A stretch of 63,681 nucleotides of DNA, the filler included, from Collodictyon triciliatum (lineage: Eukaryota): assembly GCA_043381765.1 (NCBI GenBank). It is 36 parts of 36 records of this genome, joined end to end, with 100 filler letters (N's around TTAATTAATTAA, not from the genome) between each part and the next. Parts side by side here need not be neighbours in the genome. Positions count along the whole stretch, not along the records: positions 32,884 to 34,528 come from JBHJMP010010546.1; 35 more parts are not named here. One strand, written 5' to 3'. How positions within the stretch are numbered: position 1 is the stretch's first letter; the number at the start of each line of letters is the position of its first letter. The notes under the pieces are model-generated. The model was not told where the DNA came from. It did not search any database and was given only the letters and a program-made list of their open reading frames with translations. Of the stretch, positions 32,591 through 46,574 are shown piece by piece. Made by a program: the position numbers and the translations under genes.

Positions 32591-33164
32591 AATAAGAAAT
32601 TTGTTAGTATTTTCACAATATTTTTTGTTTATTGATGACCGTTTCAAATAGAAAATATTTTAATATTACTTTTATTTGCATCTCTGTATTGTTTCCTTTT
32701 TCTTTTTTTCTTTTTTTCTTTTTTTCTTTTTTTCTTTTTTTCTTTTTTTCTTTTTTTCTTTTTTTCTTTTTTTCTTTTTTTCTNNNNNNNNNNNNNNNNN
32801 NNNNNNNNNNNNNNNNNNNNNNNNNNNTTAATTAATTAANNNNNNNNNNNNNNNNNNNNNNNNNNNNNNNNNNNNNNNNNNNNTTTTTAAAAAAAAAAAA
32901 AAAAAAAAAGAAGAAGAAGCTTTTTGAACCATTTAATATAATACCCATCCACAGACATATGTATATGACGTGGGAAAAGAACCGATAAGTAAGTTTTTTT
33001 TCTTTTGGGGGTTCGACTTTTTCCTTCCCTTTTCGACATAGAAACTCGATAGGGAGAAAAGTATTGTCTATATTATAATTTTATCATCTCCTGTCATAAC
33101 TGTTTCATTCCTTCATGCCTTCGGCTCTCTTAAGTGAACACTAATGATAACACTTCCTCCACAG

Positions 33165-34437
33165 TTTATTTGCAATGCAGAAAAGCCCCTCCTGGACTGC
33201 TAACAATAACCGATGAGATTGACGAGATAATATTGGTAGGCTAAGTTTTTATCTTCTCGGGTTATCGTACGAAAACTTTTCATAATGATAATACCAAAGT
33301 TTGTGCAGGGACTTATTCCCTTTTCTTTTATTGTGAATCAGCTTACCAAAGACAGGCAGATATTCCAATACAATATTGAGTCACTTCCGTTCACCAATAC
33401 TGTTCCTTTCGAAATCGCTCCAATCAGACAAGTTGAACGAAACGGCAAAAAGTAAAATAGGAGTCCGCAATTTTACCATATGCATCATCTTAAGCTCACT
33501 AACAGTGCCAACTGTTCTTAAATCCATTCTTGTGTTTGCAAAAAATAAAATAAAAATAAAAATGTTTAGATTTACATTCATTCGATTTTTTTTAAAAAAA
33601 GACTCAGAAACTATGTATGTTTTGCAGGGGTGCGATTCCTTTCGGTGTTCCTTTTGGTCCATTTATCCAACCGAATCCAAACTGCTTTACTCTGATGTCT
33701 GGAAATAGACTCCTGGGTGCTGGATTCTGGGATTCATGTTGGTGATTTAATATGATGTATTCGCTTGAAAATTAATATTTTCGTTGCATAAACCATTTAC
33801 TGTTGAACCGCAATCTTCAGCAATAAAGATATTATCCATGTCCTCACAAAGAACACTGCAATCCGTTGTCGGTCACAAAGATATCCTTTAAACTTCGAAC
33901 CACCAGATCATGCTGCATTTCTTATGACGCCCTTTTGTGCGTTCTGCTTGCTTGTATCTCTCCATTTCAGAGTATCAGTATATGTAAAGAAGATTATCCT
34001 TAACCCCTTCCTTACGCTTTGTTTCATGTGTTGCTATATCCGAAGACGAAAAGCTCATAGCGACAGGAAGCACAGATTGCACGATTCAGCTGTGGGATTT
34101 AAGCGGTCAATTAGGTTTGGGGGAGCACACTATTTACTTTTTATTTTATTTGCATATTTCTTTCAATTTGTCTGTGTGTTGAGATTTAATTATTTTTCAT
34201 TTGTTTTAATACGCTATTGTGTTCTAACAACTAGTTTGTTGGTGAGGTTATTGAAACTAACATGTCATTCCATACCCTTTTGCATATCCAGTGAATCGTT
34301 ATCTCCCCTTGAGCAACAAAATATCTATACCACAATCTGCTTCTATCACACCTTTCCACACCTTGTATGGTCACGATGATGAGGTAACATCAGTGTGCCT
34401 ATCTTCGGACCTAGATGTTGTCGTTAGTGGGTCGAAG
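33165..34437 (+). CDS. BEACH-domain protein (neurobeachin/NBEAL/Lvs family), C-terminal WD40 region, multi-exon fragment
   Basis: RLLGAGFWDSSIKILS...LQSVVGHKGFVSCVAISEDEKLIATGSTDCTIQLWDL...PFHTLYGHDDEVTSVCLSSDLDVVVSGSK. Confidence 0.88.
33881..34015 (+). other. U12-type (minor spliceosome) AT-AC intron
   Basis: 5' site ATATCCTTT at 33881; branch site TCCTTAAC at 33997-34004; 3' terminal AC at 34014-34015. Removal restores the in-frame WD40 sequence VVGHK-G-FVSCVAIS. Confidence 0.92.
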
Positions 34438-34439
34438 GT

Positions 34440-34506
<67 letters not shown>

Positions 34507-34880
34507 TTTTTTTTTTTTTTTTTATTTTNNNNNNNNNNNNNNNNNNNNNNNNNNNNNNNNNNNNNNNNNNNNTTAATTAATTAANNNNNNNNNNNNNNNN
34601 NNNNNNNNNNNNNNNNNNNNNNNNNNNNTAAAATAACATAACATAAAGATAAAGATAAAGATAAAGATAAAGATAAAGATAAAGATAAAGATAAAGATAA
34701 AGATAAAGATAAAGATAAAGATAAAGATAAAGATAAAGATAAAGATAAAGATAAAGATAAATATAAAGGTAAAGGTAAATATAAATAATGCACATTCAAA
34801 TAATATCATAACCGTCATCTCTACAATCAAAGATAAAGGGCACCGAATGGAGTGCCATAAACGAGAGGTTTTTCCCTACA

Positions 34881-43344: not shown

Positions 43345-43392
<48 letters not shown>

Positions 43393-43469
43393 AAAAAAGA
43401 AAAAAAGAAAAAAAGAAAAAAAGAAAAAAAGAAAAAAAGAAAAGAAAAGAAAGAGTGATAAAGTGGGAA

Positions 43470-44880
43470 CCCTGTCGAAATAGTCGCTCTCTGGATTCAG
43501 CTTCTTGAGGTAGATGCGAGAGAACGTCTGTGCAAGCTCTGTGCTCTCCTTCATAACCTCGCCCATCTTGCCCGTTGTCTGCAGATGGCCGCTGCCGGAG
43601 CCCTTCTTTTCCCCGCCTGCATTCTGCGACGCTGCGACCGATTCGATGTAGAGAGTGGCGCCACCCATCTGGGTCCAGGCAAGACCCATCACAACACCGA
43701 CAGGCGGTTCGTCGTAAAATCGGTCTGAATTGAAGACGGGTTTGCCCACGAAAGTGGACAGGTTCTTTGGTGTGATGGTGATGGCCTCGGATTTCTTCTT
43801 GACGATCTATGCCACATGATTTAGTCACTCGCAGCTATTTGTTGAACCAATGGAGAGGAAAACAGCGCATGGTATGCAGAAATTGGCTCACGAATGTTTA
43901 CTTTCTATTAGGGTATAATGGAGCTATCATTCGCACACAAAGAAGAGAGAATTACTCGAAGTGCTGCTTTTCGGTGAATTTTCTCGATTTGCTTTTGTAG
44001 ATTACGGACGCCTGACTCGCGGCAGTACTTTTCAATAAGATCTCGAATGGCTTCATCTTCGAATTTACACAAATCCTTTTGCCGAGTTCAAATTTTAATT
44101 ACAGGAATAATTAATTTCTGGAATATATTATCTTAGCCGGAAACTGCTCAGGATCTTATTATCGGGAAAAACGTAGTTAAATATAGATAGAAGTGTAAGA
44201 TATGCTTGAGTTAGTATAGGAAGGAGTATATTTGTGATAGGTTAAGATTACATCCTTCATTCCACTTTCTTTCAGTGAAGCAGGAATCAAGTAACGCTTG
44301 GCAATTTGCTCCTACATCGAAGTCCTTTAATAGAAAATCTTACTCTAGTAATTATATTGACGTATGAATGAAATCTCACAAAAAACCAAAATAATAATAT
44401 ACACCATACATATATTCCTCACTTTTTCAGCAAGCACGTATCCTGAAAGGCGAATCACTTCCATACGATCAAGCAGGGGCCCGGGGATAGTATCTGTTGA
44501 GTTGGCAGTACACACAAACAAAACCTGGTTGGAATTTAAAAGTAAATTTCCCAACCAAAGTACAGCAGTGTTGGCAAATGGAAAGTTTTAAAAACACAAC
44601 TACGTAATTATCCCGGCTTATATAAGTAACATCGCACAGGAGACATACCTTGGAGAGATCAAATGGCAGGTCGAGATAGTGGTCGATGAAGGAGGAGTTT
44701 TGCTCTGGGTCCAGCACTTCCAAAAGGGCTGATGATGGGTCACCGTGGATTCCGCGCCCTAGCTTGTCAATTTCGTCAATCATGACAACAGGATTTGCTG
44801 TCTGTGTGACTTTCAGGCTTTGAATCATCTTTCCGGGAAGAGCACCAATATAAGTTCTACGGTGGCCCTTGATTTCTGAA
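43470..44880 (-). CDS. LONP1: Mitochondrial Lon protease (AAA+ and start of the proteolytic domain), internal multi-exon fragment
   Basis: [91 protein letters not shown]. Confidence 0.96.
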
Positions 44881-45259
44881 ATGTTTTTTTTTTTGACGTA
44901 AAAAACAAAACAAAACAAAGACAAAGACAAAGACAAAGACAAAGACAAAGACAAAGACAAAGACAAAGACAAAGACAAAGACAAAGANNNNNNNNNNNNN
45001 NNNNNNNNNNNNNNNNNNNNNNNNNNNNNNNTTAATTAATTAANNNNNNNNNNNNNNNNNNNNNNNNNNNNNNNNNNNNNNNNNNNNTCTTTTCTTTTCT
45101 TTTCTTTTCTTTTCTTTTCTTTTCTTTTCTTTTCTTTTCTTTTCTTTTCTTTTCTTTTCTTTTCTTTTCTTTTCTTTTCTTTTCCTATTCGGCTCCTTGT
45201 CTTGTGCTTAAATTTATATGAATTATATGTGAGTTTTTCTAATTATTTAATAAAAATAG

Positions 45260-46574
45260 ATCCTAACCACATACCTTTGAATTGCGATCCGAATGCTGTT
45301 GCCGGGGCACTGAAGCAGTATTTCAGAGATATGCCCGAACCTGTATTTCCATTTGAGCTCTATGACTGTGTCATGGCTATCCATAGTAATATTTGTACAC
45401 ATAATTACATGCCAAAATGCCCATGTTATAGGTGATGAATATTGTGAAAAAAAAAACAATTATTAGTGTATCAATAACTATATGAGGTGTTATCTAATGC
45501 CGTTGCCTTTGAAACTTCATATGACAACTGAAAGCCATTCCCGATCATGCGGCAAGAATGAATTGCTACATTTACCTCACAAAAACATTACAACCACATC
45601 GACTTTCTCTGCTTGTCTCGCTCATGTATCTTCTAAAAGAAGTTTGCTTAAAGTCCAGCATCAATATGATGGATTCAAAAAATCTGGTATACCTTACTCC
45701 CTCAGCTTTTCATCAGAACCACTTACATTTGTCAATACTGTTATCTTCTTTATGAAAAAGTGGCAACATGACATCACTATATATATATATATATAATTAT
45801 TATTATTGTTATATAACCATATGATTTTATCAAGGCTTTGATGTTCGCGCCAAATATTCTGAAGCCATATATTCAAACTCCCCAACAAATGATGGTTGAC
45901 ATGGAAGCTCTTCCCAAATTGGTGGATGAGTTGATTCTAAACTCTTCTGAAATCTTTCAGGCAAGCGGAAATAATCAATGCAATACCATTTTAACCGTCA
46001 GAAAAATAGCAATAAAAATGAAAGCCTACTTAATCATGAAATCGGACCACAAACGAAAGAAAATTAAAAGAAAAAAAAAACAACCATCGCGCAAATAATA
46101 AAGATAATTGTCGGATAGGCCTATGAAATGGACATCCACAGCTTCGCAAGGAGGTTGACATTCTCGCATCCGCTGACAGAAGAGGAACTTTCCGTCCAGC
46201 CCCCGCCACCTGACACGCGGGCCCGCAATCTCTCGGGCACACTGGCAAGCATGTTTTCCTTCCCCACGCCCAACTTTATGAGCCTCAACTTCCCGACGTC
46301 ATTCTCGATGTCTTTGAAGAAAGACCCACGCTCGAGAAACACCCCTGGCCCAAACACAGCGGCAGATTCTTCATCAAAACCGCTCTCCCCTTTTGGCCTT
46401 TCGTCATTCCTTGGGAAAATGATGTTCAAGAAGAGCGATGAGAGCGCCAGCGATTCTGCAGACGGAGCAGCAGACGAAGGCTCGTCAACCACGGCTTCCT
46501 CCCACAAAAGCAACCCACAGGACGGTCTGTCTTTATGTTCGAATGCCTCTTTATCGGATGGATTTCTTTTGTGA
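45260..46574 (+). CDS. RhoGAP-domain protein, C-terminal exons
   Basis: DPNAVAGALKQYFRDMPEPVFPFELYD, SSINMMDSKNL|ALMFAPNILKP. Low-complexity last exon ends at TGA 46572-46574. Confidence 0.92.

Follow-up and report, generated by a model that had tools for sequence, protein, structure and literature searches.

An intron with AT-AC ends in a protist genome raises the question of whether its host keeps a complete minor spliceosome. The initial annotation had placed such a U12-type intron at positions 33881..34015 of the window, the whole 63,681-nt stretch of DNA analysed here, and the donor, the branch motif, the TAC end and a transcript joint described below all bear this assignment out. Altogether, the results make it very probable that the AT-AC intron is authentically U12-type and that its host, a diphylleid (CRuMs), splices it out with a complete minor spliceosome.

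A BEACH-family gene fragment on one contig

The gene fragment is confined to contig C10546, at 32884-34528 of the 36-piece stretch. The pieces of the window (1-63681) are unrelated, almost all about 1.65 kb long and of decreasing size, with 35 linkers that each consist of N44, 12 nt and N44; therefore neither neighbourhood nor per-window density is meaningful here. The features of the contig are listed below, with X1 to X4 denoting the runs that cover them.

32884..34528, strand not assigned: whole contig C10546; BEACH domain not on the contig
32955..32988, plus strand: earliest exon that the contig contains; putative 5' edge, with a loose end of X2 matching 32959-32988
32989-33164, plus strand: GT-AG intron after the first exon; X2 loose end matching 32959-32988
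33165..33235, plus strand: exon; X2
33236..33341, plus strand: GT-AG intron, 106 nt; X2 joint
33342..33451, plus strand: exon; X2 coverage up to 33446
33452..33627, plus strand: predicted GT-AG intron, 176 nt; frame restored, no RNA joint
33628..33737, plus strand: exon ending in a G-F-W-D-S motif; X1 covers 33678-33737, putative 5' edge
33738..33820, plus strand: GT-AG intron, 83 nt; X1 joint; five paralogs have the same site
33821..33880, plus strand: exon 5' of the minor intron (SIKILSMSSQRTLQSVVGHK-G); X1 contig coverage end to end
33881..34015, plus strand: U12-type AT-AC intron, 135 nt, phase 1; sequence and X1 joint 33880>34016
33881..33889, plus strand: U12-type donor ATATCCTTT; U11 pairs through its 5' end with +4 to +9, -5.2 kcal/mol
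33997..34004, plus strand: branch motif TCCTTAAC; complementary to GUAAGGA of the genome's U12, -9.7 kcal/mol
34013..34015, plus strand: acceptor TAC; sequence and X1 joint
34016..34114, plus strand: exon 3' of the minor intron, WD40 (NBCH_WD40 positions 127-154); X1 and Pfam match
34115..34291, plus strand: GT-AG intron, 177 nt; joint in X1, X3 and X4
34292..34437, plus strand: exon (NBCH_WD40 positions 180-209); GT donor next at 34438, near the contig end

Splicing of the seven exons gives an open 209-aa fragment, residues 1-209 of which align with the post-BEACH region of database BEACH proteins, scoring 109 bits with the best of 120 BEACH proteins versus 71 bits with the best of 150 generic WD40 proteins. 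Two exons match the Pfam profile NBCH_WD40 in the correct order, both under the Pfam cut-off, and the BEACH domain, which lies off the contig, is found in all five sister paralogs. By these alignments the gene is a member of the BEACH family with a neurobeachin-type WD40 region, in agreement with the family named by the initial annotation. The 48-aa last exon, used as a homolog query, returned no match or generic WD40 repeats only, and the NBCH_WD40 profile searched against the genome gave 391 matches, drowned out by generic WD40 genes. These 391 matches include many WD40-repeat genes (L035-L049) whose frames run unbroken for as much as about 2,850 aa, in a genome that is otherwise intron-rich.

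A 190-aa open frame that spans the intron (33807-34379) had no Pfam match and was treated as chance. At 34398, X1 and X3 carry C>T in the third base of a Cys codon, a synonymous strain or allele difference. In the whole window (1-63681), no tRNA and no Rfam match was detected. Ordinary gene fragments encode a leucine-rich repeat (LRR; 5919-6773, minus strand), a Lon protease C-terminal domain (43345-43806, minus), an AAA ATPase (44472-44987, minus), a RhoGAP (45088-45432, plus), an S33 hydrolase (54103-54779, plus) and a WD40 protein (56637-57014, minus). A 227-aa frame (21406-22086, minus) matches OAS1_C weakly, at 24 bits with a cut-off of 19.9, and no stretch of it is significant alone.

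Signals and removal of the AT-AC intron

Both the extended donor consensus RTATCCTT and a branch motif 10-20 nt from the 3' end are present in the intron, and the joint U12-type motif occurs once in the 1-63681 stretch, compared to 0.013 expected per window in 300 second-order Markov simulations. The two As of TCCTTAAC precede the final base of the intron by 13 and 12 nt, close to the distance of about 12 nt given for the branch A by the initial annotation, and we infer that the branch A is at 34002 or 34003. In phase 1, the intron splits the Gly codon that follows His-Lys of a WD40 blade. The unspliced frame reads GHKDIL*, with the read-through stop just after the exon as had been claimed, and the spliced frame reads ...VVGHKGFVSCVAISEDEKLIATGS..., restoring GHKGFVSC. 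Seven frame-keeping GT-AG or GC-AG alternatives were found in 33840-34060, all of which remove the Gly-His-Lys of the blade; predictors limited to GT-AG introns would accordingly mis-model the gene, as anticipated. The unspliced G|ATATC (33880-33886) encodes Asp-Ile, in agreement with the family's usual His-x-Asp-[Val/Ile]; this is probably a coincidence, and could mislead homology-based exon calls.

The junction to be sought in transcripts is present in run X1, where a single 893-nt contig (depth 7.5) joins 33880 to 34016 with AT and AC at the ends, skipping 135 nt exactly and unambiguously, with 60 nt on its short side. The same contig skips two further GT-AG introns and therefore derives from spliced mRNA; that the run is RNA was only presumed, and the assembly may have been made from this very sample, and the junction comes from this one contig of one run. 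A transcript that uses a GT-AG pair instead was looked for, and no other junction at the site was found in four runs; X1 is the one of the four that spans it, X3 and X4 starting downstream and X2 covering upstream exons only. Runs X2-X5 cover small shares of the window.

Minor spliceosome parts encoded in the genome

Single matches to U6atac (75.7 bits; Rfam cut-off 33), U12 (72.1 bits; cut-off 53) and U11 (55.3 bits; cut-off 39) were found in the genome, U12 with a canonical branch-binding site and U11 with its 5' donor-binding end kept; for U6atac, 45 of about 4125 candidates were scored in a fragmented assembly. U4atac gave one full-length match of 47.4 bits, below the Rfam cut-off of 53 (E 1.7e-5), yet it pairs with U6atac: stem II reaches -25.4 kcal/mol, a value that none of 2000 shuffles attained, and stem I reaches -9.2 kcal/mol. 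A test of the full-length U4atac/U6atac duplex was not significant, with 584 of 1000 shuffles as low. The expectation that this organism encodes the minor snRNAs is thereby upheld, for three of them above the cut-offs and for U4atac by a match below it that pairs with U6atac. A U4atac segment 3' of stem I (L004:669-682) is complementary to the U6atac 5' end (L001:1501-1510; -9.3 kcal/mol), and both segments deviate there from the Rfam consensus.

Among the proteins, CENATAC is a clear match to the CCDC84 profile (77.1 and 30.8 bits on C3040). An SNRNP25-like exon (PF18036, 30.5 bits), one exon and weaker than CENATAC, gave two PDB hits only at E<=1, namely U11/U12-25K (E 0.06) and a 3300001G02Rik chain (E 0.043), and a SNRNP25 gene is probable by these matches. 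The Pfam profiles taken to represent SNRNP25 and CENATAC carry the names Ubiquitin_4 and CCDC84. In human cells, CENATAC depletion affects 92% of A-type minor introns, according to PMC8280824.

By analogy with the human system, U11 and U12 would recognise the donor and branch site of the 33881-34015 intron, U4atac would deliver U6atac, and the branch A would attack the AT donor. The conserved CCTT of the donor would most likely be held by U11 and proteins, because the U6atac of this genome, described next, can pair with donor +4/+5 only.

A CC-variant U6atac

The donor-pairing box of U6atac (nt 12-16) reads GCCGA where the Rfam consensus has AAGGA, and its pairing with donor +4/+5 amounts to +0.3 kcal/mol versus -6.4 kcal/mol for the consensus (AG-type) box. 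A bulged register with C13 and C14 looped out (+0.8 kcal/mol) offered no gain over this 2-bp register and was set aside. We also rejected the view that the box is novel, as it is already described in PMC2396436 (Davila Lopez et al. 2008), the sole source on the variant found in the literature; judged by its sequence, this genome's U6atac is the CC variant ([GU]CCGA box) of that paper. Hosts given there are Trichoplax, Hydra, Nematostella, a sponge, Physarum, Acanthamoeba, Physcomitrella and three oomycetes, and its authors leave undecided whether CC or AG is ancestral and how CC pairs. Counted by eye against the sequences of PMC2396436, nt 1-47 are identical to the moss Physcomitrella at 46 of 47 positions and to human at 34 of 47, and nt 9-47 show no difference from Trichoplax and Nematostella. 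Beside the known CC variants, this is the first CRuMs example found.

CRuMs are the sister of Amorphea (PMC5793813) and therefore provide an outgroup point for CC/AG polarity. An ancestral CC state is probably the simpler reading, because CRuMs now join early animals, Amoebozoa, moss and oomycetes as hosts of CC; most of this evidence already lies within the 2008 data. A CC ancestor with AG arising several times would then be the more parsimonious history.

One intron site with two classes in BEACH paralogs

A PF02138 profile search of the genome gave 65 exon-level matches on 18 contigs. The homologous intron site was read in eight paralogs besides the C10546 gene: five have an intron at the same codon and phase and three (C4334, C715 and C6255) have none. 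The intron is AT-AC in C10546 (135 nt), C1662 (97 nt) and C658 (129 nt), the latter two with ATATCCT donors and U12-like branch motifs, and GT-AG lacking a U12 donor in C2314 (152 nt), C34 (138 nt) and C241 (119 nt); the five paralog introns are predictions from sequence, and the RNA junction belongs to C10546 only. The upstream GT-AG intron (the 33738..33820 site) is common to all six intron-bearing genes, and the spliced codon at the shared site is Gly or Ser in all six.

In a FastTree phylogeny of 13 rows from this genome and 28 chosen homologs, from which contigs with a BEACH fragment only and the WDR81-like C272 were excluded and to which the C10546 gene contributes only 69 residues, the AT-AC trio had support of 1.0, the GT-AG trio 0.986 and all six genes 0.85. 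An unfinished IQ-TREE run gave the same groups, without supports. On the preferred reading, the intron site predates the six-gene BEACH expansion. Since the sister clades are AT-AC and GT-AG major-like, one class switch explains the pattern, and this switch was most likely one minor-to-major conversion, the direction being borrowed from the literature, where conversion is taken to run almost only from minor to major (PMC10639083).

It is conceivable, if unlikely, that the minor state is instead derived, either from a major intron that became minor or from a minor intron that arose during the diphylleid BEACH expansion. None of the three other paralogs read there has an intron at the site, and among 80 metagenome BEACH loci no outgroup intron was found at the site (33 loci continuous, 1 false pairing, 46 not scorable); the continuous loci fit a derived state, but the set favours intron-poor genes and says little on intron position. 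A human/mouse list of minor-intron genes, in the part of PMC6717393 available, is without NBEA/NBEAL, LRBA, LYST, NSMAF and WDR81, and the Asp of the unspliced Asp-Ile is the commonest homolog residue at the site (56 of 85), which also fit it. Against it stand the near one-way course of conversion cited above and the codons themselves: every G|ATATC gives Asp-Ile, and splicing yields a Gly or Ser codon in each of the six genes, a misfit with a simple duplication origin. The fuller version of this reading, a GT-AG major intron turned AT-AC minor, or a new minor intron followed by conversion in the sister clade, with splicing by a CC-type U6atac that is ancestral and has hardly any pairing to the donor, we consider improbable as well. 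If true, it would go against the accepted one-way rule and would imply that the helix of five base pairs between U6atac and donor in vertebrates was added later and evolved repeatedly. Minor-to-major conversion remains our preferred account of the switch.

How many minor introns the genome holds

Strict patterns (intron length about 80-170 nt, donor +1 to +7 fixed) were searched in 75.4 Mb. The AT-AC pattern ATATCCTY gave 31 matches with 28 distinct donors, and its reversed control gave 24, for which word frequencies predict only 9; a control of 24 is close to 31, would by itself mean little excess, and counts against a real one. With a purine at +8 (ATATCCTR), 10 AT-AC matches were obtained compared to 5 in the control, and the GT-AG pattern GTATCCTY gave 10 compared to 13. 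The non-trivial density of minor introns hinted at by the initial annotation, taken as a high density, is not supported: strict matches number 31 + 10 AT-AC and 10 GT-AG in 75.4 Mb.

Both flanks were open for at least 20 codons at 21 of 26 distinct ATATCCTY loci (the 28 minus one absent from the set, and with two near-identical ones merged), against a null of 0.32-0.47, and the phases 0/1/2 of these 21 were 3/10/8, a bias typical of minor introns. The ATATCCTR and GT-AG sets had open flanks in 5 of 10 each, not above null. Pfam positions are continuous across the junction at L009, L017 and L021 (AT-AC) and at L058 and L059 (GT-AG). About 20-25 strict AT-AC introns and about 5 GT-AG introns are plausible from these patterns, with an apparent skew to AT-AC, and by rough extrapolation there are perhaps 50-200 minor introns in all, tens to low hundreds, an ordinary number. 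Counts reported in PMC10639083 are 90 for Pelomyxa, 253 for Blastocystis and 265 for Protostelium. Total intron counts by two home-made gene finders (~12,000 and 1,300-1,500 introns/Mb), run on a sample without contigs numbered above C9597 except those of the window, were rejected; the finders missed known GT-AG introns, and therefore no density percentage is claimed.

Several of the matched loci lie in recognisable genes. Two G-protein alpha paralogs (L017:1501-1631 and L021:1501-1662) have a common phase-2 AT-AC intron at Pfam positions 217|219, and GT-AG introns with U12 signals were seen in RPL5 (L059; C1606:7721-7867, minus strand; Pfam 42|43) and in a P-type cation ATPase (L058; C1236:7687-7780, minus strand; Pfam 50|53). 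Further likely minor introns are L009, L015, L016, L020, L028, L029 and L053, in genes for a protein kinase, zuotin, a Ras-family GTPase, a formin, an IBR protein, a TPR protein and a dynein heavy chain. L025 and L027 (C4314 and C4450) are near-identical 118-nt AT-AC candidates, alleles or a recent duplication.

A lineage with an expanded, Physarum-like set of minor introns, whose signals are mostly too relaxed for strict patterns, is a decidedly unlikely host. It would account for the one BEACH AT-AC intron of the three that both strict patterns miss, and CC-type U6atac also occurs in Physarum (PMC2396436). The genome search argues otherwise, with 28 + 10 distinct AT-AC and 10 GT-AG matches in 75 Mb, some of them chance, and a U12 branch-binding site that is canonical, unlike that of Physarum. 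That organism has over 20,000 minor introns, and its annotated introns include 627 ATATCCTT and 3021 GTATCCTT (bioRxiv 2020.10.12.336362); neither of its hallmarks, minor introns by the thousand and a changed U12 branch-binding site, was found here. An ordinary complement of minor introns thus fits the data better.

The splicing machinery and the host

Removal of the AT-AC intron by the major (U2) spliceosome has very little to commend it. Major AT-AC introns exist (85 in human, PMC8280824), the 12 nt after TCCTTAAC are rich in pyrimidines, and pairing between the donor and the CC-type U6atac is weak (+0.3 kcal/mol, versus -6.4 kcal/mol for the AG-type box); opposed to this are the perfect complementarity to U11 and U12, the presence of all four minor snRNAs and CENATAC, and two paralogs whose introns at this site retain ATATCCT donors together with branch motifs of U12-like form. 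Minor splicing remains the preferred reading.

The four cox1 matches in the genome all lie on one 85.5-kb contig, C834. The Rpl2 of C834 is 84% identical to that of Diphylleia rotans, the sole named eukaryote among the 120 matches listed, which also include two further matches of 98% and 90% identity, as well as bacteria listed by organism name at 45-50%. By this mitochondrial contig, the host is a diphylleid (CRuMs), though probably a different one from D. rotans. On C834 (L050-L052), cox1 is split into four segments distributed over both strands, a layout that trans-splicing would lead one to expect (cf. PMC4779616). That a second eukaryote in the assembly is the source of the contig or of the snRNA genes, as a fragmented assembly of a predatory protist and a lineage assigned from a mitochondrial contig only might allow, is scarcely credible against the location of all four cox1 matches on C834, a single match per snRNA, the mutual pairing of U4atac and U6atac, and the nesting of the C10546 gene among the genome's paralogs with common intron sites.

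Standing and relation to known systems

No report on a minor spliceosome in CRuMs was found in the papers and supplements searched, and none was found there that links Diphylleia with a minor spliceosome. CRuMs names are absent from the main texts of PMC11347168 and PMC8280824, the text and supplement of PMC11039992, and the supplements of PMC10639083 and PMC9887622. That CRuMs retain a minor spliceosome was to be expected, the machine being ancient, yet it fills a gap beside Amorphea. Gene prediction in this genome must allow AT-AC introns, and the six BEACH paralogs, with one intron site, both classes and one nucleus, form a ready test set for a change of spliceosome.

Compared to BEACH proteins with a neurobeachin WD40 propeller (NBEA/NBEAL/plant BChC type), the 209-aa fragment can be aligned over its whole length with the post-BEACH region, and the C10546 gene falls in a six-member clade with no sampled outside member. 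As in the minor-to-major conversions of PMC10639083, one position is minor in some genes and major in others; unlike those cases, both states occur in sister paralog clades of one genome, as AT-AC versus GT-AG, with a direction assumed from the literature. With Physarum polycephalum (bioRxiv 2020.10.12.336362) this genome has in common the CC-type U6atac and minor introns shared by paralogs; it differs in showing no sign of thousands of minor introns and in its canonical branch motif. The AT-AC share of strict matches is nearer that of Blastocystis (77%) than that of human (about 26%). There is also a close likeness to the A-type introns (canonical U12-type AT-AC) known from animals, plants, amoebozoans and oomycetes (PMC10639083 and PMC8280824): donor, branch motif and its distance, and the AC end are alike, the bias away from phase 0, the four minor snRNAs and CENATAC are also shared, and the difference is that the present host is a CRuMs protist.
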